DNA of 35,570 nt from a virus. The position numbers were made by a program, and so were the translations under genes. The first letter of the stretch is position 1. Every line of letters starts with the position of its first letter. Shown one piece after another: positions 7,801-32,631 of the stretch. The stretch covers positions 1 through 35,570 of IMG/VR virus record IMGVR_UViG_3300045988_124184; one strand, 5' to 3'. The notes below the pieces were generated by a model. It was not told the origin of the DNA and searched no databases. It was given only the letters and a program-made list of their open reading frames with translations.

Positions 7801-8649
7801 GCTGACCTTCAAACACAAGTGTTTCAAAATAATGCTCCAAATGTTGGAGCAGCAGAGCAAAGTACTATGCAGTCAGTTTTAGATGCAATTTATAGTACAA
7901 ATCCTGGCATGGCCAGTGCAGTTCAAGCATTGGTGAACGCTGGAATTTTTGAAATGGAGAACGGAAAAATTGGTTTCTCTGATAAAGCAAAAGAAATGGG
8001 TTTGGACGGCAATGAAACTTTAAGAGGATACATTTCAGAGTTTGAAACAACTTCAAAAAATATTGCAGTGGGTGCTGCAGCAGGTGTTAAGGCTGGTGCC
8101 TGGAATTTTATTCAACAAGCTGAAGACATGGCGAAACAAGGTCTTAAAAACTTTAAGCATGTGCTTGGAATAACATCTCCTTCAAAAGAGTTCATTAAAG
8201 CTTCAAAATGGATACCAGAAGGCGCAGCACAGGGCGTGAAAAATAACGCAAAAATCGCTACGGATGCAATATCTGCTATGGCAAATGATATGACATCTGA
8301 GTATGAAGCTTCATTGGATGACTTTACAACCACAGGCATAAAGGATGCTTTTGATAAGCTACCAGAGCAAGAAATTAAGCTGGTCGGACTTTTGGAGAAA
8401 ATCAAAGGTTTAGACGCCACCGCCCTTATGGACAAAGCCAGAGCGGCAGTATATGCAAATCAAACGGCTGTGGCAGGTGCGGCAGTGAGAAGCAGTTATA
8501 TGATAAACACAGGTATGTCACAGAGCGCAAACAGTGGTGGAGACAGGCAAACAGTGATTAACTTTAACCAACCTGTAGAAAGTCCGGATGCAACAGCAAG
8601 AGCAATCAATAGGATTTTTACTTTTGGATTGGCAGGTGATAAAGGATGA
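4891..8649 (+). CDS. Tail tape measure protein
   Basis: 1252 aa. The N-terminal core resembles TP901-family TMPs (FSATESAAAFKYMAQAGWS...). It has hydrophobic central segments and long coiled-coil stretches. Confidence 0.95.
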   Translation: MADGKVVIETDLDSSGIQAGLSKLSSIARSSVKGTLTSIASAGTALAGLGSTAIKIGADFEAGMSEVQAIARASASDMELLKEKAKEMGAETKFSATESAAAFKYMAQAGWSTEDMLNGISGVMSLAAASGEDLALTADIVTDSLTAFGLEAKDAAHFSDVLAMTANATNTDVANLGYTFKYVAPVAGALGYSIEDMSVAIGLMANSGIKAETAGTALRTTLTNLAKPTQQMTGYMEELGISLTDAQGNVKPFNEVMIDLREGFEGLTEAQKAEYAAGIAGKEAMSGLLAIVNASDEDFAALTAQINNCNGAAEEAAKIMQDNLKGSVEQLGGALETLGIEFYESVDTPIRTIVDSATSMVDQLTKAFKDGGLSGLVSELGTVFAEVATQAANSAPKMIDAATSMITSFLDGISQNSGQISNAAVKIGESLINGIAQIIPRVAEVGVEIVASLISNLLGSDVGRSVEELGKTIIDSFKTIASAVSGALNSLKPAFSTFISTVSNIAKAVIPPLTKVIEICISALKPMAPILLGVAGGFTALKIVKTVTGLIKKFTETEIVSNTITTIQNGLLWAKIAATEVLTGKITLAQAAQQLWNIAMGQNPIGAVVTAIGVFVGVLSGLAAALSGTNSEYQNAVNSLNDLKEAHEEVRSEQQKALEADFKEIDQINVLKTELDKLVDSNGKIKDGYLDRATAIAGELAEATGLEIEIIDGQIQKYGELGESIDAVITKKQMAALTDSLQEISDHAESQLDEARAYLETVTKAYNDAQAAYDRAKEYAERTGDDSKLGSLERDLKNKQAEMEKQIALVDSLREDIAMGTEALAVSASGDAKVMSDFMTRVSVKVDETGKAIIQSEASTYAERERLASEYRDMAERTTDQYLKDLYIKQAEELERQNAQMDSSLGIQIALIDSKGEQFNLSYAALMDKAAEGITNGGVGVDLAMQENMLAIVTAITNAQLPVEEQTRLLADLQTQVFQNNAPNVGAAEQSTMQSVLDAIYSTNPGMASAVQALVNAGIFEMENGKIGFSDKAKEMGLDGNETLRGYISEFETTSKNIAVGAAAGVKAGAWNFIQQAEDMAKQGLKNFKHVLGITSPSKEFIKASKWIPEGAAQGVKNNAKIATDAISAMANDMTSEYEASLDDFTTTGIKDAFDKLPEQEIKLVGLLEKIKGLDATALMDKARAAVYANQTAVAGAAVRSSYMINTGMSQSANSGGDRQTVINFNQPVESPDATARAINRIFTFGLAGDKG

Positions 8650-9476
8650 TAAGATTTGTAAGGGATGACGGCTTAACATTCAATATTTCAGATTATTTTA
8701 AAATTGTCAGTATTGAAGGATTAGGCACAATCACACAGGAGATATTTACAGAAAAACGAGCAGTTGGTGACGGCGACATCATAACAGGAACAAGGGTTAG
8801 CGCTCGAACAGTGACAATTACCGCTTGTAATGACTATTCCGGACAATTTGATACATCACGTGAAAAAATAAATCGTTTTTTTAATCCGAAAAATTCCTTT
8901 AAGATGTATGTCACGTATAAAAACAATACGGTGTGGTGTGAGTGTATTGTAGATGCACGAGATCTACCAACAGATAATATTTTTTCCCCGCAAATGTTTA
9001 CGCTATCTGTATTTTGTCCCAGTCCTTATTTTAAATCTTATGATGATTTTGGTAAGGATTTATCCAGTGTGTCCCCGATGATGGGATTTCCTCTCATGAT
9101 TTCGCAAGAAAAAGGATTTGTTGCAAGCGTGAGAAATTTTTCACAGCATGTATTTGTACCGAATGATGGTGCAATCGACACGTATTGTACCGTTGTGATT
9201 AAACCGGACGAAAATGTTAGTGGATTAAAAATCTATAAAAATGAAAAAGAATATATTTTATTTACAGTTGAGTTGAAAGTACATGAAACTGTGAAAATTG
9301 ACTTTGAGCGTAGAACAATTGAAATAGCAGGGAAAAGGATTCCAAACTGTATTGATAGGAAAAGTACTTTTTTTGCTTTGGATAAAGGAGGATGTACCAT
9401 ATCTTACGATGCCAACGAGAATGTAACAACGACACACATATATTTATACTACAACCAGCTTTATGCGGGGGTGTAA
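8646..9476 (+). CDS. Distal tail protein (Dit / siphovirus tail family)
   Basis: 276 aa, ATGA-coupled to the TMP; position and N-terminal pattern are typical. Confidence 0.75.
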   Translation: MIRFVRDDGLTFNISDYFKIVSIEGLGTITQEIFTEKRAVGDGDIITGTRVSARTVTITACNDYSGQFDTSREKINRFFNPKNSFKMYVTYKNNTVWCECIVDARDLPTDNIFSPQMFTLSVFCPSPYFKSYDDFGKDLSSVSPMMGFPLMISQEKGFVASVRNFSQHVFVPNDGAIDTYCTVVIKPDENVSGLKIYKNEKEYILFTVELKVHETVKIDFERRTIEIAGKRIPNCIDRKSTFFALDKGGCTISYDANENVTTTHIYLYYNQLYAGV

Positions 9477-9477
9477 T

Positions 9478-10497
9478 ATGGATGTGATTTTTTTAGATGC
9501 AGATTTTAATATGATAAAGTCTGTAGAATATATTAATTTGCAGTGGAATAGAAAGTATTACGAATGTGGGCAGTACTCCATTCAGATTTTAGCGGAAGAT
9601 TTTGAGGAAACCTTCTGTTATGTCTATAGATCTTCCGAAAAAGAAGTCGGAGTGGTTCAAAAGATAGAGTACACCAGTGAGGAACGCGGAGAGTTTGTAC
9701 AAATAAGTGGCTTTTTCTTAGAAAGTATGCTGAACAATTATATTATGCACCCCGCTTTTTCATATAGCGGTAGTTTAACAAACTGTATTTTTCATGTTAT
9801 TACAACATTTTGTACCGGTCTTGGTCCTCTGAGAACAAATTTGGAACAAGTCCCTAGTAAAAAAATATCGATTCAGGCCACAGGAGATGAAGTAGGAGAT
9901 TTTTTGTTTTCACTTTTAAAAGAAAATGAATGTAGCCTAACGTTTACACGCAACTACGTTGATAAATGTTTTGAGTTCAAAGTGGAGAAAGGGCTTGATA
10001 GAACAGCTGATATAGCCCCTACACTTAATGTTGAGCCTGCAATTTTTAATCAGAGCTGGGGACATTTTAAAAGTCTGAAAGTGGTAACGGATACAAGCAA
10101 TTATAAAAACTATGCTGTTGTTGCCGGCAGCGGTGAAGGTGAGCAAAGAAAAACAGTAACTGTGGATAAATCTAATGGAAAAACTTTGCAACGACTTTAT
10201 GTGGATGCAAGAGATTTACAGCAAAAAGAAGGAATGTCTTTACAAGAATATCTTGACATTTTATCTACTCGAGGAGTTGAGAAGCTAAGTAAACATAACA
10301 AAATCTTAAATATAAGCTTTGACCTCATAGGTGATTTAATCTATAAGAAAAATTTCGATTTAGGAGATAAATGTGACATTATTCTAAAAAATATGGGTGA
10401 GTATCAATCGCGAATTATTGGCGTAAATGAAACAGTCAAAGAAAACAGAAAGGAAATAAACGTTATTTTCGGGGATAAAGTGCCAAGAAGAAAATAA
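9478..10497 (+). CDS. Tail-tip protein, siphovirus Gp37-like family
   Basis: ATG at 9478 follows GGGGGTG. The N-terminus MDVIFLDADFNMIKSVEYINLQWNRKYYECGQYSIQI matches my recollection of the Sipho_Gp37 family. Confidence 0.6.
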   Translation: MDVIFLDADFNMIKSVEYINLQWNRKYYECGQYSIQILAEDFEETFCYVYRSSEKEVGVVQKIEYTSEERGEFVQISGFFLESMLNNYIMHPAFSYSGSLTNCIFHVITTFCTGLGPLRTNLEQVPSKKISIQATGDEVGDFLFSLLKENECSLTFTRNYVDKCFEFKVEKGLDRTADIAPTLNVEPAIFNQSWGHFKSLKVVTDTSNYKNYAVVAGSGEGEQRKTVTVDKSNGKTLQRLYVDARDLQQKEGMSLQEYLDILSTRGVEKLSKHNKILNISFDLIGDLIYKKNFDLGDKCDIILKNMGEYQSRIIGVNETVKENRKEINVIFGDKVPRRK

Positions 10498-10513
10498 AAA
10501 GGAAGGTGATTTT

Positions 10514-11677
10514 TTGGAAAGTATATTTTTTGATAGTCAGGTGACATATGACGAGTACGGAACACCTGTATACGATAGACCCAATAGCGCAGAGCAGTTA
10601 AGAGCAACCTTTGCCTCATTGTTGTCTAATGGCATCGTGTCTACAAGAACCAGCAGTATGGCATCGGAAGTAGGATTTATTGTGGATGCGGTAGGAGGAA
10701 TGGAAGTAGCTGTAAATAAAGGTGTGTGCTGGATAAATGGCTCTTGTGGAAAAGAGTCCAGCCGGCGAACATTCACACTGGATGCAGGAATGGAACAACC
10801 GAGATATGACAGTGTTGTGCTTCGTTGGGACAATAGGCAAGCTGCAAGAAATATAGACATTTTTGTTAAGAAAGGAATCCCGGGGGGTGACCCTACAATC
10901 CCACTGCTGGAAAGGAATTCATCGGTATATGAACTTCGGCTTGCAAACATTTTAGTTCAGGCGAATACATCGGCGGTAACAACAAAAAATATTACAGATA
11001 CAAGACTTGCTACAGAGGATTGCGGCTTAGTTGTAGGACTTGTGAAAAACATCGATACTTCTCAACTGTACAAGCAGATACAGTCAGATTTATATGACTT
11101 TAAATCAACGGAGCAAGCAGAGTTTATGCGTTGGTTTGAAACGATTCAAAATATTTTAGATGAAAATGTTGCTGGAAACTTACAAAAACAAATTGATACA
11201 AAAGTTCCGATGTCCCGCACGATAAACGGAAAGGCGTTAACAGGTAATATCACACTTACAGTGGACGACATTGGAACAAGTACAATCTTTTTAGTATCGC
11301 ATCCTGTGGGAAGTCTGTTTGAAACAACGGTTTCCACGAACCCGGGTACATTGTATGGCGGCACATGGGCAGCGTGGGGAGGCGGTCGAACCCCTGTAGG
11401 AGTAAATCCTGCCGATACCGATTTTAAAACGGTAGAGAAAACAGGCGGTGAAAAAACACATACTTTAACAGTGGATGAAATTGCTCCTCACTCTCACATT
11501 GAAACTATATACTGGAATGCTGGGGGATCAGGAACAGCCCATCCGGCAGCGGTTGAAGCAGGAGACCCTAGAAAGTACGGAGGACTTGTCGCACGCACAG
11601 AAAATACAGGTGGCGGACAAGCACACAACAACTTGCAACCGTATATCACATGCTATATCTGGAAAAGAACCACATAA
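10514..11677 (+). CDS. Tail fibre / receptor-binding protein with a C-terminal phage tail-collar domain
   Basis: TTG start after GGAAGGTGA. The C-terminal GGEKTHTLTVDEIAPHSH...GGGQAHNNLQPYITCYIWKRT is the tail-collar signature. Confidence 0.8.
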   Translation: MESIFFDSQVTYDEYGTPVYDRPNSAEQLRATFASLLSNGIVSTRTSSMASEVGFIVDAVGGMEVAVNKGVCWINGSCGKESSRRTFTLDAGMEQPRYDSVVLRWDNRQAARNIDIFVKKGIPGGDPTIPLLERNSSVYELRLANILVQANTSAVTTKNITDTRLATEDCGLVVGLVKNIDTSQLYKQIQSDLYDFKSTEQAEFMRWFETIQNILDENVAGNLQKQIDTKVPMSRTINGKALTGNITLTVDDIGTSTIFLVSHPVGSLFETTVSTNPGTLYGGTWAAWGGGRTPVGVNPADTDFKTVEKTGGEKTHTLTVDEIAPHSHIETIYWNAGGSGTAHPAAVEAGDPRKYGGLVARTENTGGGQAHNNLQPYITCYIWKRTT

Positions 11678-11690
11678 AGGAGGAAAAAAC

Positions 11691-12104
11691 ATGGCACTGG
11701 AAAAAGAATTAATCAATGGAAAAGGCGTAAAAACTGCTTATCATCGTATAGACAGTATCTCTATGGTGGACGGCATTAAAGTCACGGTAAAAAGCTATAC
11801 AGATGAAAGCTATAGACAGCAGGAGAAAGATAGGGATGCACTTATCAAGCGACAGGAAGAAGTAAAAAAGCAGCTTGAAGAAGAAATGGCAAAAACGGGC
11901 GATGAATACGACAAAGAAAAAGTAATTGCGTTGACTGAAGAAAATAATGCAATTGGCTTTCCTACAGTAATTGATTTGGCGGTATTCGTTCATGAATTTC
12001 AGTATCCTCTAGATAAAGATGCGGTAGTCAGCTACGAAGCTATGTACCAAAAGCTAAAACAAGAGTCACTGTTTGAAAATGCAAAAGATGTATTGGAGGA
12101 GTAA
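11691..12104 (+). CDS. Hypothetical tail-associated protein (137 aa)
   Basis: ATG at 11691 follows AAGGAGGAAAAAAC. The longer tracked ORF (from 11475) overlaps the fibre gene out of frame. Confidence 0.7.
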
Positions 12105-12106
12105 AT

Positions 12107-13213
12107 ATGCAACTATCAGTAATCGATGTAAGCGAACATCAAAGAAATATTAACTGGGAAAAAGTAAAGAACGCGGGCGTGGTCGGTGCCATGATACGTA
12201 CAGGCTATGGCATTAAAGACCCGAACCAAATCGATAAGTACTTTTACAACAATCTATCAGGCTGTCAAAACGTTGGTATGCCTTATGGATTTTATCACTA
12301 TTCTTATGCTATGGATATAGCAGGTGCAGAGCAGGAAGCAGACTTTTGTCTTGAACTTATCGCAGGCAGTAATCCGCAATATCCAGTGGCATTTGACATG
12401 GAAGAAAATCGTCAAGCTGCATTAGGTAAAGCGGTATGTACCAATATGGTACTCGCTTTTTGTAACAAAATTCGTGCAGCGGGTTACATACCAATGCTGT
12501 ATACAAACTTAAACTGGGCAACTAATTATATTGACATGGCGCGCATTGACGCGGCAGGCATAGACGTATGGTTGGCACAATATAACACACAGTGCGACTA
12601 CAAAGGTGCATATACCATGTGGCAGTATTCCTCTAAAGAGGTTATTGACGGTATTACAGCCAATACCGCAGACATGAATTGGTGCTATAAAGATTACACC
12701 AACGGAGCCGCTTCCACACCTACACCACAACCAGAACCAAGCTATGACACATATACAGTTATGGCAGGGGATACATTAAGCGGTATTGCTGCAAAGTTTG
12801 GCACCACTTATCAAGAGTTGGCGGCAATCAACGGTATTGCAGACCCGAACGTGATTCATGTAGGACAAATCATCAAGCTCAAGGGCGATGTGGCCGATGT
12901 GCCACAGAGTGGGACTACTTACACCGTGCAGGTAGGGGACACACTGAGCGGAATCGCTGCAAAGTACGGTACTACCTACCAAGAACTAGCTGCTTTAAAT
13001 GGTATCGCAGACCCCAATATCATTCATGTAGGACAAGTTTTGAAAGTCGCAGGTGGTACAGGTGGTCGCACTTACACAGTGCGGTCCGGTGACAATCTTT
13101 GGGATATCGCACAAGCACAGCTTGGAGATGGTGCGCGTTTTAGAGAGATTATCGCCATGAATGGCCTTTTATCCGATACTATCTACCCCGGTCAAGTGCT
13201 ACAGCTGCCATAA
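12107..13213 (+). CDS. Endolysin: GH25 muramidase + three LysM repeats
   Basis: The N-terminus is GH25-like ([24 protein letters not shown]). There are three LysM units ([34 protein letters not shown]). Confidence 0.92.
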
Positions 13214-13225
13214 TCGGAGGTAGCT

Positions 13226-13561
13226 ATGAGTGTAAATTTAGATATTATTTTATATATATGTGGTGTTATCACATCCACATCAGCAGCGGTGGCTATCGTC
13301 ATCAAGCTGATAAATAAAAAGATAACCCGAACTATCGAGGAAAACTCGGCGATTCGCAACATCCATACTGCCCTTGTATCACAAATACGCTATCAAATAG
13401 ATACAGCTTTAAGACGGGCAAAGACAGAAGGACATGTAAGTAACTACTCGATGTCCGCTTTAGAATCTTTATTTGAAGTGTATAAGGCTATGGGCGGCAA
13501 CGGCTTTGTTGAAAGTGAAATGGAAGAGATAAGAAAGATAAATCAAAATGGAGGGAAATGA
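13226..13561 (+). CDS. N-terminally membrane-anchored lysis-cassette protein
   Basis: One N-terminal TM helix (IILYICGVITSTSAAVAIVIKLI), RBS GGAGG, located between the endolysin and the holin-like gene. Confidence 0.6.
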   Translation: MSVNLDIILYICGVITSTSAAVAIVIKLINKKITRTIEENSAIRNIHTALVSQIRYQIDTALRRAKTEGHVSNYSMSALESLFEVYKAMGGNGFVESEMEEIRKINQNGGK

Positions 13562-13562
13562 C

Positions 13563-13886
13563 ATGGATTTTACAGAATATATTAAGCCAGAATTATTAAT
13601 ATTAGTTCCGGTTTTATATGTCATCGGTATGGCTATCAAGAAAACATCTCTTATCGCAGATAAGCTAATACCTCTTGCAGTAGGTGCAGCAGGTATTCTA
13701 CTATCCATCATCTATGTACTGGCTACCAGTGACCTAGGTAGTCCGCAAGCTGTAGCTATGGCAATCTTTACAGCATTGACACAAGGTGTACTGGTAAGCG
13801 GTGCAAGTGTGTATGCGAATCAGATTTTTAAGCAGTTTAAAGATAGTGGTACTAAAGATGATAGTACAAATACAGAACAAAAATAA
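13563..13886 (+). CDS. Holin-like protein (2-3 TM helices, charged C-tail)
   Basis: ATG at 13563 is 8 nt after GGAGGG. The TM segments plus the KDSGTKDDSTNTEQK tail are typical of Gram-positive phage holins. Confidence 0.7.
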   Translation: MDFTEYIKPELLILVPVLYVIGMAIKKTSLIADKLIPLAVGAAGILLSIIYVLATSDLGSPQAVAMAIFTALTQGVLVSGASVYANQIFKQFKDSGTKDDSTNTEQK

Positions 13887-13896
13887 GTAAAAAGAA

Positions 13897-13936
13897 GTCC
13901 TCCCTTGCATAATATAAGGGAGGGCTTTTTTATTTT
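13897..13936 (+). terminator. Intrinsic terminator closing the lysis cassette
   Basis: 10-bp stem GTCCTCCCTT/AAGGGAGGGC (one G-U pair), 9-nt loop, T6 run. Confidence 0.85.
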
Positions 13937-14038
13937 TACAAATTATTTTTTAAAAAGTTTCCTTGTTTAGGGAAATTTTTAGGTTTTTTAGGGGGATTTA
14001 TAGAATGAATAAATTTCATCTAAATTAAAATTATTACA

Positions 14039-14098
14039 TATACTGTTATATAAAATTGGTTATACGTATTGAATAGTTTGCCTATACTGTGGTATAGT
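14039..14098 (+). promoter_or_regulatory. Promoter of the three-gene cassette with two repeated operator-like sites
   Basis: TTGAAT (14069-14074), 18 nt, TGgTATAGT (-10 at 14093-14098). TATACTGTtaTATA is at 14039-14052 and TATACTGTggTATA at 14083-14096; the second overlaps the -10. Confidence 0.6.
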
Positions 14099-14173
14099 AA
14101 AATAAAGATACAAAGTGCAAGTGTAGTTTTTTTAATCTATTTATAGGTTATTTTTGATAAAGGAGGGTGAAAT

Positions 14174-14437
14174 ATGAGTGAAAATATTGTAAACCCTATA
14201 TTCGCAGATGCTCACCGTATTTTTTTAGTTGAGAATGCGATAAATATTCAATTCGGATTATCTGATAAAGACGGGGAAGATAAGGAACCAGAGGTAATCG
14301 GAAACGTATTTGTTACCCCTGAATTAGCTTTGCAATTAGCCGGTTCTATACTGATGGCTTGTACAGAGTATCAAGATAAATATAAACATGATTTAGGGTT
14401 AAAACTAGACATTAAAACAGATTCAGGAGAAAAATAA
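14174..14437 (+). CDS. Cassette gene A: small acidic protein, possibly DUF3467-like
   Basis: 87 aa, RBS AAGGAGGGTG. The pattern FADAHRIFLVENAINIQFGL-[acidic loop]-VIGNVFVTPELALQL...EYQDKY recalls DUF3467; this is from memory only. Confidence 0.75.
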   Translation: MSENIVNPIFADAHRIFLVENAINIQFGLSDKDGEDKEPEVIGNVFVTPELALQLAGSILMACTEYQDKYKHDLGLKLDIKTDSGEK

Positions 14438-14464
14438 TAGTTTAATGTGGTGAGAGGTGTAAGC

Positions 14465-15094
14465 ATGAATAATTCTAATCAATCCATGAAAAGAATTCAA
14501 CCTCGAGTGGCATTAGCACCAGAAATTTTAAAGTTAGCGAATAAAGCTTCTGGTTTACATGAGGTTAAGGATAGAATAACTACAAGTCAAGCTGTTGACT
14601 TACTAGAGGCTACATTTTCAAACATGGCTGAATCTGCATGTTTGGGTCAATATAGTATTGAGCTTGTTGATAAGCAAAATGATACCATTGATAAATGGAC
14701 ACTCTCTAATAATTCTGAAAAAGCGTATGATGTGTACCAAGAATTTATGAAAAATAAAGAATTCTTGAATAAATTTTCTTTTTCGGGAGACGTGGAGAAA
14801 GTTAACCCAATGCACTTAGAATTCATAGAACTGTTTTCGGATATGGAAGATCTGGAAGATATATACGTGTTTATAAGTGCTCGAAACTATATGGATTTTT
14901 GGTTTATTGTTTCCAATGAAACATACAAAACAACTATTTCATTTATAAAAAAAGCAAATAGCTTTTTAAGAGAGCGAAAAGTAACAACTTATGAATTTTT
15001 AATCGCCGACAAAGACCAATTCCGAAAAGAACAAATGCCAATTCCTGCTTATTCATTTCACAAAAAAGGTAGGGATGAGCTTAATGGAAAGTAA
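14465..15094 (+). CDS. Cassette gene B: unknown protein with a possible N-terminal RHH-like segment
   Basis: ATG at 14465 follows GAGAGGTG. 209 aa. PRVALAPEILKLANKASGL...TSQAVDLLEATF is compatible with strand-helix-helix. I do not recognise the C-terminal ~150 aa. Confidence 0.75.
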   Translation: MNNSNQSMKRIQPRVALAPEILKLANKASGLHEVKDRITTSQAVDLLEATFSNMAESACLGQYSIELVDKQNDTIDKWTLSNNSEKAYDVYQEFMKNKEFLNKFSFSGDVEKVNPMHLEFIELFSDMEDLEDIYVFISARNYMDFWFIVSNETYKTTISFIKKANSFLRERKVTTYEFLIADKDQFRKEQMPIPAYSFHKKGRDELNGK

Positions 15095-15437
15095 GCAAGC
15101 ACACTTAGAAAAATACTTCCACAATAAAGATTTTTTAGATAATGGTATAAAAGATGGATCTAAGTATCCAGATTGGGAAATTACAGTTATCTTTTATTGT
15201 GGTGTACATATCGTTGAAGCTATGCTTGCAGAAAAAAATATTCATGTCATAGACCATCAGGATAGAAAAGATGAAATGGAAAATATCGATAATATAGACG
15301 ATTTCAGAGATGAATACATCCATCTTTACCAATTAAGCAGGAAAGCAAGATATAAATGTTTTTTACCTAAGCTAAAAGATGTATATGATGCGCAAGTGGA
15401 TTTGGATGCTATTAAAAGTGCAGCAGGAATAAAATAA
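15075..15437 (+). CDS. Cassette gene C: minimal HEPN-like protein (Rx4H motif)
   Basis: 120 aa (or 117 aa from ATG 15084), overlapping gene B by 20 (or 11) nt. The composition looks helix-rich, and R78-DEYI-H83 is encoded at 15306-15323, followed by LSRKARY. Confidence 0.7.
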   Translation: MSLMESKQAHLEKYFHNKDFLDNGIKDGSKYPDWEITVIFYCGVHIVEAMLAEKNIHVIDHQDRKDEMENIDNIDDFRDEYIHLYQLSRKARYKCFLPKLKDVYDAQVDLDAIKSAAGIK

Positions 15438-15438
15438 A

Positions 15439-15469
15439 AGGGTAGCGGTTTAACTGTTACCCTATTTTT
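15439..15469 (+). terminator. Intrinsic terminator directly after cassette gene C
   Basis: 10-bp stem AGGGTAGCGG/CTGTTACCCT (two G-U pairs), 5-nt loop, ATTTTT. Confidence 0.65.
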
Positions 15470-15511
15470 GTATTAAGTAATAGGGCAAACTTCCCGTATT
15501 AACGGGGCTAT

Positions 15512-15549
15512 AGCTGTTCAGCTTTCGGGCTGGGCAGCTTCTTTTTTTT
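15512..15549 (+). terminator. Second, stronger intrinsic terminator
   Basis: 11-bp stem AGCTGTTCAGC/GCTGGGCAGCT (two G-U pairs), loop TTTCGG, then TCTTTTTTTT. Confidence 0.8.
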
Positions 15550-15652
15550 GCGAAAATTTATGAAAATCTTTCTGGTGCTACATTCCCGTAACATCGGGTT
15601 TCCCTTTGTTGAAAATATGGGTTGATCTTATGTAGCATAAAATACGCATTCT

Positions 15653-15674
15653 ATTGTTACGTTATTGTTACGTT
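15653..15674 (+). repeat. Tandem 11-bp direct repeat ATTGTTACGTT x2 (putative integrase arm-type sites, P arm)
   Basis: Exact tandem copies read directly. Related copies lie on the other side of the tRNA core at 15850-15871. Confidence 0.7.
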
Positions 15675-15702
15675 GCATATAAAAAACGGCGTAGATACGT
15701 AT

Positions 15703-15758
15703 AGCGCACTTGACTGGGGGTCAAGGGGCCGCAGGTTCAAGTCCTGTCACTCGGACCA
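15703..15758 (+). other. attP core: 3' portion of tRNA-Pro(GGG), from the D-stem 3' strand to CCA
   Basis: GCGC-A-CTTGA-CTGGGGG-TCAAG-GGGCC-GCAGG-TTCAAGT-CCTGT-CACTCGG-A-CCA. It has an anticodon loop with GGG and G37, a T-arm and the acceptor 3' strand. The 5' acceptor and the 5' D-stem are absent. Confidence 0.8.
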
Positions 15759-15760
15759 TT

Positions 15761-15807
15761 AAAAACCGCGTAGTTTAGCCGTTTTAGCTATTCTACGCGG
15801 TGTTTTT
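15761..15807 (+). terminator. Hairpin terminator downstream of the tRNA fragment
   Basis: Perfect 9-bp stem ACCGCGTAG/CTACGCGGT, ~19-nt loop, flanked by A5 upstream and GTTTTT downstream. Confidence 0.65.
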
Positions 15808-15849
15808 ATTGTGTGAAAAATTGTGTTAAATTATCAAAAATTTTGTTTT

Positions 15850-15871
15850 ATTGTAACGCTATTGTAACGTT
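15850..15871 (+). repeat. Tandem 11-bp direct repeat ATTGTAACGCT/ATTGTAACGTT (putative arm-type sites, P' arm)
   Basis: One-base variants of the 15653-15674 repeat in the same orientation, abutting the int stop codon. Confidence 0.7.
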
Positions 15872-16899
15872 TATTTTAGTAAGCCGATTGCATTTTTTAA
15901 GGTGTTGATACTTTGGTGTATATATGTGTTTGCGGTAGTATCATAGTCGGTATGACCAAGTATTTTTTGAATATCTTCTGGGCGTGCACCTGCTGCTGAT
16001 AGCATTGTCGCACATGTGTGCCTTGTACAGTGTGGAGAGAGTGGGCGGACTCCGATTTTTTCTAAAGCAGGATAGTAGCATTTTTCACGGAAGAGCCGTG
16101 CAGTATATGGAGTGCCATCTTCTTTACAAAAAATAGTTTTTCCTTTTTTTGATAGCCATTTTTCAACAATAGGAAGAATCTTAGCGTGAACCGGAACATT
16201 TCTGTTTTTACCAGCTGTCGTTTTACTTCCACCAGTCAGAATATTATTTTTAGAGTCATAAGAAAAAGGCGTTAAATTTAAAAATTCATTTATACGAAAT
16301 CCTGTATAGCACATGCATAAAATTACATCCGCAAAAGGGACTATGTCGACCGATTTTTCAATTTTTGCAAGTTCAATATCTGTAAAGCTGTCTTTGCTTT
16401 TTGTTTCAGCTTTAGGAAGGTTGATAAACTCTGCGTAATTTTTACTTACAATATCGTTTTCAAGTGCATACTTATAAAGCTGTACCAAAAGTAGCTTTAT
16501 CTTTGATAGTGAGGATTGCGACATGCTAGCATTATCGTCAATAATTTTTTGCATTTGGCTTGTGCGAATATCTCGAAAGCGTATCCTATAGAGTTCAGAT
16601 AACTTTTTATATGCAGCGTTGTAGTTATCTATCGTTTGCTTTGAAATGTTCCTATAAGCGATTTCAGACCACTCTGTGAATACCTCAGAAAAAATAATGT
16701 TGAATTTTTCTGTTGGGTTCTGCTGATATTGAAATAAGGCTTCTTTTGCTTCTCTTGACGTCTTAAAGTGTCCTATCACTATTCGCTTTGGTTTTCCTTC
16801 GTCTGTATATATAGCGGGGGCTATAGCCACCCACGGACGCGATTTACTGTCTTTACGCTTGCAAACCGTTCCAGTTCCATTGCCTCTCTGTTTGCTCAT
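15871..16899 (-). CDS. int: Tyrosine recombinase (phage integrase)
   Basis: 342 aa. The C-terminal catalytic signature is present (HCTRHTCATML...ILGHTDYDTTANTYIH). RBS AGGAGGTAC. It lies adjacent to attP. Confidence 0.95.
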   Translation of the reverse strand: MSKQRGNGTGTVCKRKDSKSRPWVAIAPAIYTDEGKPKRIVIGHFKTSREAKEALFQYQQNPTEKFNIIFSEVFTEWSEIAYRNISKQTIDNYNAAYKKLSELYRIRFRDIRTSQMQKIIDDNASMSQSSLSKIKLLLVQLYKYALENDIVSKNYAEFINLPKAETKSKDSFTDIELAKIEKSVDIVPFADVILCMCYTGFRINEFLNLTPFSYDSKNNILTGGSKTTAGKNRNVPVHAKILPIVEKWLSKKGKTIFCKEDGTPYTARLFREKCYYPALEKIGVRPLSPHCTRHTCATMLSAAGARPEDIQKILGHTDYDTTANTYIHQSINTLKNAIGLLK

Positions 16900-19982: not shown

Positions 19983-20318
19983 ATGAATGAAGAAAAACTG
20001 AGTTTATTAATTTCGTTTTTTAATACTGCAATTTTAAGTAAATCAGAACGTACTGAGTTATTAAAATTAATTGTAAACGGTATTTTAACAGGCGAAATTA
20101 TACCTGAATCATATAATATAGACCCCAATGTATTTTTATTCTTTAAAGAGAATAATTTTTCTGGGGAAATACAAGCAGAAGAATTGTATAAATTATTTTT
20201 AGCATGGTGTATTGAAAATAAAAAAGAAATGATTACACTTACTAAATTTGGTATTGAAGTAAAAAAACTTGGTTATCAAAAAAGAAGAGTTAAAGAGGGA
20301 ATTATATACACAATTTAG
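19983..20318 (+). CDS. Hypothetical protein whose C-terminus parallels the primase C-terminal domain
   Basis: IQAEELYKLFLAWCIENKKE-MITLTKFGIEVKKLGYQKRRVKEGIIY aligns by eye with IQASQLYRAYKEWAKENGEYDGMSNTRFGREISNKFPKIRKKDGQYY at the end of ORF 23350-25623. Confidence 0.65.
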   Translation: MNEEKLSLLISFFNTAILSKSERTELLKLIVNGILTGEIIPESYNIDPNVFLFFKENNFSGEIQAEELYKLFLAWCIENKKEMITLTKFGIEVKKLGYQKRRVKEGIIYTI

Positions 20319-20329
20319 GAGGGATGAAA

Positions 20330-21199
20330 ATGTTTCAACCGGTAACGCGTCAAAAAGCTAAATTAAGGCTTGCTTTAACCGGAGTATCCGGAGCCGGAAA
20401 AACACTGTCAGCACTATACATAGCTTATGGTATTACAGGTGACTGGAGTAAAGTTGCATTAATAGATACAGAGCATGAAAGAGCACGGTTTTATGCAAAT
20501 AGAAGTGATTTAGGTACGGGAACCTTTTTATATGCTCCAATGGTACCACCATATAGTCCGGATAAATATAAGCAGATGGTTGCAGAGGGAGCAAAAGCGG
20601 TAGGCAATGATGGTGTCGTAATTATTGATTCTCTTTCTCACGCTTGGAATAATGAAGGCGGAGTATTGGAAATTAAAGATAAAATAGCAAGCCAACAAGG
20701 GAAAAATAGTTATACTGCATGGAATGAAGCCGGCAAAGAACAAAACGCACTTATCAATACTATTTTATCAGAAGATTGTCATACAATTGTAACCATGCGC
20801 TCAAAAATGGATTATGCAATGGTCGAGAATCATCGAGGTAAATTAGAACCGCAAAAAATTGGTTTAGCACCTATTCAAAGAGATGATACAGAATATGAGT
20901 TTGACATTGTATTAGATATTGCGCGTAATCATGTTGCAACGGCCTCCAAAGATACGACTTTTTTAGATCAATACGGTGCTGTTATTACTCCGGATTTAGG
21001 AAAACAATTAAAAGAGTGGTTAGATAACGGAGTAGAACCGGAAAGATGCGAAGAATGCGGAGGAATTATTAAAGCAACTAAAACAAAAAGTGTGGACGAT
21101 GTAATACAAGGTACAATGAGTAAAACAGGTAAAAAAATATGTATGAAATGTTATTCAAAGTGGATAAAAGAAAATGAAGTTAAGGCCGTATCAGAATAA
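20330..21199 (+). CDS. AAA_24-type (Sak4-like) ATPase with a C-terminal zinc ribbon
   Basis: Walker A (GVSGAGKT), IDTE motif, and C-terminal CEECGG...CMKC. ATG at 20330 has better SD spacing than ATG 20324. Confidence 0.8.
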   Translation: MFQPVTRQKAKLRLALTGVSGAGKTLSALYIAYGITGDWSKVALIDTEHERARFYANRSDLGTGTFLYAPMVPPYSPDKYKQMVAEGAKAVGNDGVVIIDSLSHAWNNEGGVLEIKDKIASQQGKNSYTAWNEAGKEQNALINTILSEDCHTIVTMRSKMDYAMVENHRGKLEPQKIGLAPIQRDDTEYEFDIVLDIARNHVATASKDTTFLDQYGAVITPDLGKQLKEWLDNGVEPERCEECGGIIKATKTKSVDDVIQGTMSKTGKKICMKCYSKWIKENEVKAVSE

Positions 21200-30721: not shown

Positions 30722-32398
30722 TTGCTTACTCCTGAATTCTTAGAGCGCTTTCCTCAGCCTATCTTTGATTTATTTCAAGATTTAGAAGATGAGATACTGA
30801 AAGATATATCCAGACGCATTGCGAAAACCGGAAAAATTACAGATACAGCACAATGGCAAATGGAAAGATTGAGTGCAATTCTTTCTACTGACGAAAAAAT
30901 AAAAAAAGCTATTTCTAATGTTGATAAAAAAGCACAGAAAGAAATAGAGAACATGCTAAATGAAGCCGCTCACACATCTTTTGATGCACAGGCGGCTATT
31001 TATTATGCTGCAAATAAAAATATCAAGAAATTTACAGACTACAGCGAATTAGAAATGCTGATTGAAAGCATCATAAAGCAGACACAAGGTGAGTTAAAAA
31101 ATTTAACCCGTACTATGGGCTTTGTGGAGCAGGTCAACGGTAAATCTCACGCGGTAAGCCTTACAACAGCATATCAGAAGCAGTTGGATTTAGCGCAGCT
31201 ATCTGTTTCCACTGGAACGCTGGACTACAACACGGCGATACGAACAGCAATCAAGCGACTTGCTGACAGTGGTATCCGCTTTATCAATTACGAATCGGGA
31301 TGGACAAATCATCTTGATGTAGCCGCAAGGCGAGCAGTGATGACAGGTGTCAATCAATTATCTGTGAGGATGACAGACTTTCTAGCAGATGAGCTAGGAT
31401 GTGAATTCTTTGAAGTAACTGCACACGCAGGGGCAAGACCGTCACACAGAGTGTGGCAAGGCGAAGTATATCACAGAGGTGGAGAAAAAGACGGCTACCC
31501 CGATTTGGAAGAAACCACAGGATTGGGAAGAGTAGACGGACTTTGCGGTGCAAACTGTCGACATTCTTATCATCCATTCTTTCCGGGTATATCCGAAAGG
31601 GCGTACAGCCGAAAACAACTGCGAGAGATTGACCCACCTTCATTTATATATAACGGTAAGGTGTATACTACGTATGAGGCTACTCAAAAGCAAAGGGATA
31701 TGGAAACGGCCATACGCAAGACAAAAAGGGAGTTAATCGGTTATGAATCTGCTGGACTGAAAGATGATTACATAGCCGCTGCGCTCAAACTCAAAAGACA
31801 GCGTGACGCGTACAAAGAGTTCAGTTATCTTGCTGACATGGCACAGCAGAAAGAGTTGACACAGATTTATGGTTTTGGGCACAGTCAGGCAAGTAAAGCG
31901 GTGTGGGCGAACAGAAAGGTTGAAAAATCTGCCCAAAGTGCTATACTGAATGACAAGGAAGAATCAGCTTTATTAAGATATTTGAGCGGGGAAAGTTATA
32001 TTCTGAATGCAAAACTAAGAGATGGAATATCATTAAACTCTTCTGAAAAAGAATTAATGTTGGATATGGATGCAACTTTAAATAAACTTCCAAAATATAA
32101 AGGAATAGTCATACGAGATTTAGACTTTAAATATTTTGATGAAGTTGAAACGTTTGTAAATAAACATAAAATTGGAGCTGTTGTTGAATATTCTTCGTTT
32201 TCATCTTGCTCAACTTTAAATTCTTATCAAAATAGTCCAACAATACGTTTATATATTCAATCTAAAAATGGTAAGGATTTAAGGAAGTATAACGCTGAAG
32301 AAGGAGAAATACTATTCAAAAGAAACACAAGATTTTTCATTCATAACCAATATCGCAAAGATGGAATGTGGATTTTTGAAATGGAGGAATTGATATGA
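30722..32398 (+). CDS. MuF/SPP1 gp7-family minor head protein fused to a C-terminal ADP-ribosyltransferase toxin domain
   Basis: The N-terminal two-thirds are gp7/MuF-like. The C-terminal ~150 aa carry LLRYLSGESYILNAKLR, R465 (YKGIVIRD, nt 32114-32116), FSSCS (32198-32212) and E527-G-E529 (32300-32308), i.e. the R / STS / ExE triad. Confidence 0.85.
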   Translation: MLTPEFLERFPQPIFDLFQDLEDEILKDISRRIAKTGKITDTAQWQMERLSAILSTDEKIKKAISNVDKKAQKEIENMLNEAAHTSFDAQAAIYYAANKNIKKFTDYSELEMLIESIIKQTQGELKNLTRTMGFVEQVNGKSHAVSLTTAYQKQLDLAQLSVSTGTLDYNTAIRTAIKRLADSGIRFINYESGWTNHLDVAARRAVMTGVNQLSVRMTDFLADELGCEFFEVTAHAGARPSHRVWQGEVYHRGGEKDGYPDLEETTGLGRVDGLCGANCRHSYHPFFPGISERAYSRKQLREIDPPSFIYNGKVYTTYEATQKQRDMETAIRKTKRELIGYESAGLKDDYIAAALKLKRQRDAYKEFSYLADMAQQKELTQIYGFGHSQASKAVWANRKVEKSAQSAILNDKEESALLRYLSGESYILNAKLRDGISLNSSEKELMLDMDATLNKLPKYKGIVIRDLDFKYFDEVETFVNKHKIGAVVEYSSFSSCSTLNSYQNSPTIRLYIQSKNGKDLRKYNAEEGEILFKRNTRFFIHNQYRKDGMWIFEMEELI

Positions 32399-32631
32399 AC
32401 GCCAATAAAAAATTAACTTTTGAAGAATTTTTACAAATGCCTCGTTCAGAACAAAATATTAGGTACAGAGATTTATCTGACCACGATAAGTTTAGGGCAA
32501 GAATGAGTGAAGGCGGATACTCATTAGTTGATGATGGTACACCACCCATGACTGAGGAAGATTTTTGTGCTATGTTTGGAATAACAAAGCAAGAATTGGA
32601 AGATTTTAAAAAACTTCATAATTTAAAATAA
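32395..32631 (+). CDS. Small acidic protein, candidate immunity/antidote for the ART domain
   Basis: 78 aa, ATGA-coupled to the toxin-fusion gene and followed by a terminator. Confidence 0.6.
   Translation: MNANKKLTFEEFLQMPRSEQNIRYRDLSDHDKFRARMSEGGYSLVDDGTPPMTEEDFCAMFGITKQELEDFKKLHNLK

Follow-up and report, generated by a model that had tools for sequence, protein, structure and literature searches.

The 35,570-nucleotide stretch of viral DNA studied here (positions 1 to 35,570 of IMG/VR record IMGVR_UViG_3300045988_124184, called the window below, always at its full length) carries, between its lysis genes and its integrase gene, three small genes that we call A, B and C. Comparative analysis shows that ABC is a conserved operon that is under selection and that some phages have and others lack on the same constant backbone, and by comparison of its sequence it matches no named system. 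We read ABC as an accessory, moron-type three-gene operon in a swappable slot that temperate phages of gut Clostridia/Oscillospiraceae have at their right end, most likely a toxin-antitoxin or abortive-infection-type conflict module, and we hold this reading with a confidence that is evenly balanced.

By open reading frame (ORF) call, A lies at 14174-14437 (plus strand, 87 amino acids (aa), net charge -8) with the strong Shine-Dalgarno sequence AAAGGAGGG, B at 14465-15094 (plus strand; 209 aa from an ATG with a Shine-Dalgarno sequence or 215 aa from a GTG at 14447) and C at 15084-15437 (plus strand; 117 aa from the ATG at 15084 or 120 aa from the ATG at 15075). The 117-aa form of C seems likelier because the relatives begin at the MESKQ methionine; residues of C are numbered here on the 120-aa form. 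The gap between A and B is 27 nucleotides (nt), and B and C overlap by 11 or 20 nt according to the start of C.

When A, B and C were searched against Pfam, PADLOC, PHROGs and NCBIfam nothing significant was found, and in PADLOC-DB 2.0 no family reached E ≤ 1 for any of the three, which agrees with an earlier sequence-only reading of this DNA that could not place the operon among named three-gene systems. A megablast search of the cassette against GenBank phages gave zero matches, the NCBI label for all three is that of hypothetical proteins of Clostridium sp. and Oscillospiraceae metagenome-assembled genomes (MAGs), and a word-indexed protein search returned only relatives that were at least 86 % identical. 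The three genes nonetheless co-occur across genomes, the same gene order being found in at least five diverged lineages with identities of 33-47 % for A, about 31-34 % for B (over the alignable part) and 48-50 % for C. Type 1 consists of the window and loci L001-L010, type 2 of L011-L016 and L076, type 3 of L042-L045 and L077, and to these are added L050 and L051. Type 2 is 96.5, 91.9 and 86.5 % identical to type 1 in A, B and C, respectively, and the ratios of nonsynonymous to synonymous substitution rates (dN/dS) between these two types are 0.09, 0.15 and 0.11. In type 3 the identities to the window are 47 % for A', 31 % for B' and 50 % for C', and the cassette again stands directly after a Phage_holin_5_2 gene. 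L050 was matched by the family profiles of A (E 1e-17) and C (E 5e-29; the contig stops within its C gene), and L051 weakly by that of A and at E 3e-32 by that of C. A is conserved within the ABC clade, with homologues upstream of B homologues in type 3, L050 and L051, and three of the five remote relatives of B sit in this A-B-C synteny. The overlap of B and C is kept in types 1-3, and in L050 and L051 the two genes are adjacent with short gaps. The block of holin, A, B and C was found behind both siphovirus- and myovirus-type tail modules, beside GH25 or Amidase_2 endolysins, and with tyrosine or serine integrases. The type-3 cassette of L077 stands in a backbone that has the window's integrase and repressor layout, which by this comparison is an allelic replacement at one site. 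In L006 (assembly GCA_964261755.1, 8399-9342) the frame of B is broken into pieces of 89 and 122 aa and that of C is shifted close to its end; the copy may be decaying, or the sequencing or assembly may be at fault.

The location of the operon was examined through a census of the holin next to it. Relatives of the window's second holin are encoded by 23 IMG/VR loci, and among the approximately 15 IMG/VR phages in which this holin is at least 85 % identical and enough downstream DNA is available, ABC is present in only 3. Seven others (L052, L054, L055, L056, L059, L060 and L067) keep both flanks, as seen by blastn, around 1.0-1.6 kb of unrelated cargo. On the left side homology to the window stops at 13892, 13939 or 13980, and it resumes at 15427-15431 and runs to 15463-15473; type 1 and the type-3 allele cease to align at about 13980, and homology of the ABC block ends at 15469-15473. 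From these breakpoints, together with presence and absence and GC content, the cargo unit proper is placed at about 13981-15426 (plus strand, about 1.45 kb) and comprises the promoter region and A, B and C. To its left lie the intrinsic terminator of the holin/lysis operon (13891-13931, plus strand, 17-bp stem), whose sequence is conserved across all the cassette types and also where phages have different cargo, and a conserved spacer (13932-13980, plus strand) that holds an inverted repeat (13951-13963/13969-13981) and was delimited by alignment and blastn breakpoints. To its right is the conserved flank at 15427-15473 (plus strand), where homology resumes and within which the terminator scan placed a terminator at 15439-15463. 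In the region 13500-16000 a consensus scan found 3 terminator-like hairpins, the number in shuffled sequence being 1.4 +/- 1.2. The hairpins by which the sequence-only reading had taken the cassette to be insulated are therefore present, but the flanking terminators are, by these alignments, part of the conserved slot and not of the cassette. Its GC content is 0.313, against 0.451 for the endolysin gene and 0.376 for the window, so that the AT-richness judged by eye in that reading is borne out. What is expected of a moron or of hotspot cargo was thus found in presence or absence between conserved flanks, in the promoter and terminator scans and in deviant GC content.

The cargo that sister phages carry in the same slot is to a large part recognizable. 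In L052 it is a SocA/Panacea antitoxin (PF13274, 4e-25) with a partner, and by eye likewise in L054 and L055. In L060 and L067 it is a protein of 132-171 aa, an XRE HTH_3 protein (1e-11) and a SecB-like protein (0.006), in L059 proteins of 198 aa and 120 aa with a SecB-like protein (1.5e-5), and in L056 DUF6978 with DUF1828/DUF1829. L053 is a looser case, in which homology to the window stops at 13892 and resumes at 15734 and the right-flank block is not retained; between these breakpoints, after the holin, lie a minus-strand Abi_2 gene (PF07751, 1e-37) as well as a DUF4160/DUF2442 pair. Because sister phages fill the slot with recognizable toxin-antitoxin modules, ABC lies in a hotspot of conflict genes, and we regard this location as the strongest evidence for a conflict-system role.

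The triad in slot 1 of L059 (2071-3433) may be a tripartite toxin-antitoxin-chaperone (TAC) type system with a new toxin; its 198-aa protein resembles by eye an ADP-ribosyltransferase (YHATS...GNGVYF), and the N-terminal half of its 120-aa protein resembles a 61-aa ORF that lies in L046 downstream of the B relative P0009. A second cargo insertion point, slot 2, was placed by homology breakpoints at 15473/15474 and is empty in the window. It is filled with 1.3-1.5 kb of small genes in L003 (11303-12612), L052 (5500-6806), L055 (5663-7196), L059 (3475-4970) and L067 (5975-7252), the contents including a recurrent 157-aa protein, proteins of 81-130 aa and a minus-strand gene of 62-74 aa that is RHH/TacA-like or HTH_26. 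On its downstream side is a second terminator (15512-15539, plus strand, terminator scan) within a conserved block at 15473-15556. In the type-2 and type-3 loci homology resumes only beyond further small genes, HicA/HicB among them, that come after the cassette. In two long MAG contigs (L009/L010) a Vsr/C5-methylase/HpaII-type restriction-modification cluster and a reverse-transcriptase gene are found at about 8000-12500, past the serine recombinase, and this region looks like a defence-island neighbourhood at the prophage end.

When C was compared by tblastn with GenBank phages, gp33 of Thermus phage Tsatsa, named a 'HEPN domain protein', was matched at E 8e-8 (82-90 aligned residues, 35-36 % identity), as were two Microcystis phages at E 1e-2. 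On Pfam PF05168, which has a cut-off of 22, gp33 reaches 22.5 bits, and PF05168 was matched at E ≤ 1 by 5 of the 21 C-family members, with a best E of 2.3e-5. The top match of gp33 among PDB sequences was a 'HEPN domain-containing protein', 9xbd_A, which was weak (E 0.047) and in which H61 falls on the SH of the chain and SR[KR]ARY on its RNRSDY; a second entry, 9xbc, differs at the tyrosine of RNRSDY (Y to F). Because of this transitive and weak homology to PF05168 members via gp33, C is plausibly a HEPN-superfamily protein of the PF05168 type. Retrieval with an alignment of these C-type sequences gave 18 genomic and 5 viral loci, from Armatimonadota, Thermus, Bacteroidota, Planctomycetes and Bifidobacteriaceae, and a metagenome scan added more. 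In the 21-sequence alignment N17, D33, W34, T37, Y41, H45, H61, R92 and Y93 are invariant and H10, A43, A49, Y81, L84, S88, R89 and A91 nearly so. The motifs shared with gp33 are DWxIT..FY.A.H, H61 and SR[KR]ARY, the last of these without a conserved H. Going by this alignment, the C family is a clade of its own with invariant W34, H45, H61 and R92-Y93.

Gene B has a variable N-terminal region of about 60 aa, a helical middle and a conserved C-terminal α/β domain at about 100-205. An exhaustive phmmer search with B found only 5 remote relatives in 1.84e9 proteins (cluster representatives), and all of them share the C-terminal ~100 residues (LEDIYVF-x6-D.WFVVS ... YEFLI..K.QL..MP.P.YSFHKK). One of them, P0009, has a bona fide XRE HTH_3 domain at its N-terminus (E 1.7e-9), and the N-terminal region of B is possibly DNA-binding as well; the ribbon-helix-helix binder with which the sequence-only reading found it compatible was not matched by a Pfam profile. 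In AlphaFold2 (AF2) models built from 7 sequences, the C-terminal domain has pLDDT values of 78-93 and follows the order α(85-103), β(104-108), α(115-122), β(130-137), β(143-149), α(154-170), β(176-182), β(196-200), and the N-terminus, with helices at 19-33 and 41-58, has values below 55. A Foldseek search with the B model in PDB and BFVD had no match at E ≤ 1e-3; the best matches were generic small α/β domains (CDF-transporter C-terminal, acyl-CoA-ligase C-terminal and MafI2 immunity protein), and among these best matches was the MNT chain 8xeh_E of the Legionella HEPN-MNT complex (target-normalised template modelling (TM) score 0.54, E 0.064), which did not exceed the generic domains. By eye a hairpin of the C-terminal domain looks like a degenerate MNT G-loop (IYVFISARN..DFWFIV against hhLFGSxARG..SDIDLhV), but this idea was rejected as unsupported, since in hhalign against HI0073 (100 % identical to 1no5_A) and the MntA and 1wot fragments the register was as expected but the probability was 0.9 %. 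P0009 itself is encoded downstream of a C5-methylase gene and of a gene for 354 aa, and RelB/ParE and an AAA_15 ATPase are close by. P0007, a 130-aa protein made up of the B C-terminal domain only, overlaps a C5-methylase gene at the end of the latter.

The sole family signal for A is DUF3467 (PF11950), a family without known function, and it was obtained at E 0.13 in 1 of 5 A-family members; A of the window did not match the DUF3467 Pfam model, and the resemblance to DUF3467 that the earlier reading had named is weak. A was also considered as a SecB-like chaperone, and this was rejected as no SecB match of A, B or C was found and the A family, when compared by hhalign with the SecB-like proteins from this slot, gave an insignificant result (E 0.13). 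In the distant C modules the third gene is missing or is unrelated to A.

A partner gene was found immediately upstream of C homologues, on the same strand and often overlapping, in nearly all of the 20-odd C loci examined. The partners in 13 loci are of ~160 aa and are mutually homologous; 11 of these loci are Bacteroidota genomes or contigs, and the other two are a Bifidobacteriaceae MAG and a Microcystis phage. Other partner families are of 103 aa (Armatimonadota), 103 + 126 aa (Thermus, L040), 74 + 122 aa (L080) and 116 aa (L079), and partners were also found in Planctomycetes. Comparison of A or B with these partners by BLASTP and hhalign was insignificant. An iterative HMM search with the B C-terminal domain scored them at 10-14.5 bits, the best shuffled decoy scoring 11.2, which is a hint. 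The Thermus-type relatives form a three-gene operon of their own with overlapping genes of 103 aa, 110-126 aa and, HEPN-like, 118-126 aa, as in L017 (Thermus phage Tsatsa, 2242-3279), L021 and L040 (3377-4357); in Tsatsa it lies between a LexA-like repressor and an integrase, and its two upstream genes have no detectable similarity to A or B. Tentatively, and with more doubt than confidence, we suggest that C and its relatives are a HEPN-like clade in which the conserved site N17, H45, H61 and R92-Y93 replaces Rx4-6H, that the upstream partners may share the α/β domain of B, and that this would be a new family of conflict or defence modules in at least six phyla and in phages, of which the Clostridia-prophage version gained the DNA-binding N-terminus of B and gene A.

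Upstream of A the sigma-70-type promoter candidate TTGAAT-18-TATAGT with an extended -10 TG lies at 14069-14098 (plus strand; 9/12 plus TG), and the promoter that the sequence-only reading had assigned to the operon is in this sense present at consensus level. The window contains the 14-mer TATACTGTnnTATA at exactly two places, 14039-14052 and 14083-14096, which are 44 bp apart, the second copy lying over the -10 as that reading had described; in shuffles the mean is 0.42 occurrences, for a pattern that was picked post hoc. The copies extend to two candidate operators of one direct repeat family, TTACATATACTGTTATATA at 14034-14052 (plus strand, ~17 bp upstream of the -35) and TTGCCTATACTGTGGTATA at 14078-14096 (plus strand, overlapping the -10 and with an internal palindrome TATAC/GTATA). 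The promoter and the repeats are identical between the type-1 and type-2 alleles. In type 3 repeat copy 1 is absent, and the allele has its own extended -10, TGATATAAT, overlapping a palindrome unlike that of type 1, which together with the different N-terminus of B in type 3 is weakly consistent with co-variation of operator and DNA-binding domain.

If ABC is a conflict module, the lysogen would transcribe it from the operon's own extended -10 promoter, and the variable N-terminal region of B would bind the two repeats and autoregulate the operon. The C-terminal α/β domain of B would bind C and hold it in check, and translational coupling of B and C is suggested by the gene overlap. We assign B the role of regulator or neutraliser because its C-terminal domain is conserved, its N-terminus is variable, P0009 has an XRE HTH and the repeats lie over the promoter. 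C would be the effector and would act through the invariant surface of N17, H45, H61 and R92-Y93, not through R78/H83, and A may be an accessory factor (a stabiliser, a second regulator or a trigger sensor) that is specific to the Clostridia-phage clade.

Several results weigh against this reading. The promoter and the operator are consensus-level predictions, and in this AT-rich DNA the scan scored 16 promoter-like hits where 12.1 are expected, which is no enrichment. No HEPN model in Pfam, NCBIfam or PDB sequences was matched by C itself, nor was HEPN found when the C-family profile was compared with PDB sequences, and the AF2 model of C, built on a 3-sequence alignment, has helices only but a mean pLDDT of 45 and is unusable. 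C has a net charge of -6, which is atypical for an RNase toxin. The motif GSX10DXD is absent from B, as the earlier reading had said, and from all B relatives. B C-terminal domains without A or C are found beside DNA methyltransferases in L046 (4001-5300) and L049 (2-888), and this domain may serve restriction-modification or defence loci as a regulator module of a general kind and not neutralise C. A phage hotspot can, besides, be a site for anti-defence genes or for other genes of lysogenic conversion. Lastly, type 2 has I, type 3 K and L051 Q in place of R78, and in place of H83 type 3 and L051 have D, L050 has I, Tsatsa has N and a Microcystis phage has E. R78x4H83 is thus confined to the type-1 allele, and both residues vary in types 2/3, L050, L051 and all distant relatives. 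Since R78 and H83 are unconserved in relatives with the whole cassette, the relevant residues would be H45, H61, R92 and Y93, and the functional site of C is likely the invariant constellation rather than R78/H83.

Some of these points fit a division of roles that differs from the one proposed above. C could be a non-catalytic HEPN-like adaptor, sensor or antitoxin with the α/β domain of B or A as the effector, or the operon could be a toxin-free switch, such as an anti-defence, superinfection-exclusion or lysogeny-modulating moron. We consider this possible though clearly the less probable course. It would agree with the lack of conservation of the Rx4-6H dyad and with the acidity of all three proteins, the B-type domains beside methyltransferases without C resemble the controller proteins of restriction-modification systems, and some of the hotspot cargo (DUF6978, DUF1828/1829) is without known function. 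The nine invariant residues of C, on the other hand, are mostly polar or aromatic and fit an active or ligand site better than a passive adaptor, the identifiable neighbours in the slot are toxin-antitoxin and Abi modules, and the upstream, often overlapping partner of nearly every C homologue is the classic antitoxin-toxin layout.

That C is a canonical HEPN RNase toxin with R78/H83 as its catalytic dyad, neutralised by B in a type II/VII-like manner, was the form in which the HEPN assignment of the sequence-only reading had been put, and this we consider very unlikely. The window allele does hold, as R78-DEYI-H83-L-Y85, a literal RX4HXY, which is the active-site motif of HEPN-MNT toxins (PMC11586414) and which arises in only 1.2 % of shuffles of C; the looser Rx4-6H, however, arises in 45 % of them. 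R78 and H83 vary in ABC-clade loci that have the complete module (in L050 the contig stops within C), types 1 and 2 differ under purifying selection, and the MNT motif is absent from B and the comparison with MNT profiles insignificant. What remains of that assignment is the transitive homology to PF05168. The least probable explanation, that ABC is a late-expressed lysis accessory (antiholin, lysis-timing or spanin-like) of the lysis module, has in its favour that the type 1-3 cassettes stand directly downstream of Phage_holin_5_2 with no breakpoint wherever upstream DNA is available, but it is opposed by the strong terminator between holin and cassette, by the unrelated cargo that most phages with the same holin have at that point in place of the cassette, by proteins that are soluble, acidic and without long hydrophobic segments in the sequences read, and by C homologues in non-phage contexts in Bacteroidota and other phyla.

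As a candidate conflict module, ABC shares features with several known systems. In the HEPN-MNT (HepT-MntA) type VII toxin-antitoxin systems, such as those of Legionella, Shewanella and Aphanizomenon (PMC11586414), two small genes are likewise adjacent and overlapping, with the HEPN-family gene downstream and an upstream partner that has an α/β domain. B, however, lacks GSX10DXD and its comparison with the HI0073/MntA/1wot profile was insignificant (probability 0.9 %), RX4HXY is unconserved in C, which groups with PF05168-type and not DUF86/HepT-type HEPN, and ABC has the third gene A and in B an extra N-terminal and middle region. With the PF05168 proteins (Tsatsa gp33, 9xbd) the likeness is that gp33 shares the motifs of C, and the difference is that C is below Pfam detection and in a separate clade. 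TAC systems, which have a SecB-like chaperone (PMC9098466), are also three-gene operons of toxin-antitoxin type, and TAC-like triads are found in the same slot of L059, L060 and L067, but A is the first gene and not the last, it has no SecB similarity, and the effector family is another. Tha of S. aureus prophages is a protein of ~300 aa with conserved R265/H270 and demonstrated RNase activity, and Tha/Ith is located in the cI operon with the inhibitor gene antisense (PMC11087260). There, too, a prophage HEPN-domain protein has a cognate phage-encoded inhibitor in an accessory region near the integrase, but Tha/Ith has no sequence relationship to A, B or C. Finally, the slot resembles the hotspots of antiviral systems in P2/P4 phages and satellites (PMC9122126) in its conserved flanks and in diverse, swappable cargo enriched in defence and toxin-antitoxin genes. 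It differs in belonging to gut Clostridia/Oscillospiraceae siphoviruses and myoviruses, in lying between the holin terminator and attP, and in having a second slot downstream.

Upstream of the cassette are a GH25/LysM endolysin and two holin-type genes. Downstream of it are the tyrosine integrase (15871-16899, minus strand; ORF call, with PF00589 on the identical gene in L001) and a LexA/CI-type repressor. Between cassette and integrase a partial tRNA-like sequence was found at 15688-15747 (plus strand; positions 9-63 of 71 of the Rfam tRNA model, 28.7 bits, E 0.0024), and we take it for the probable attP core, a likely copy of the 3' part of the tRNA that the phage targets in its host for integration. 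ARAGORN did not find a complete tRNA, and in the Rfam scan of 13800-16000 the partial tRNA was the sole match, with none in the 5' untranslated region or the genes. The description, in the sequence-only reading, of a self-contained three-gene cassette at the junction of lysis genes and attP is confirmed. A 46-aa ORF (15622-15762) overlaps the tRNA-like sequence and recurs in L077. Two more GC minima of the window, at 32001-32500 (0.284) and 20001-20500 (0.300), fall into the early/replication and packaging regions and may mark further accessory inserts.

All support for the conflict-module reading is computational, and candidates of this kind are common. If the module works, it would be a three-component architecture built on a HEPN-like protein without the canonical dyad, which would widen the notion of a HEPN effector, and it would include a new α/β partner domain that has 5 remote relatives in 1.84 billion cluster representatives. 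The hotspot in which it lies has sharp flanks (the holin terminator, 15427-15473 and the second slot at 15473/15474) and occurs in prophages of abundant gut Clostridia/Oscillospiraceae, organisms in which few defence, toxin-antitoxin and anti-defence genes have been characterised, and it can be mined systematically for new genes of these kinds.

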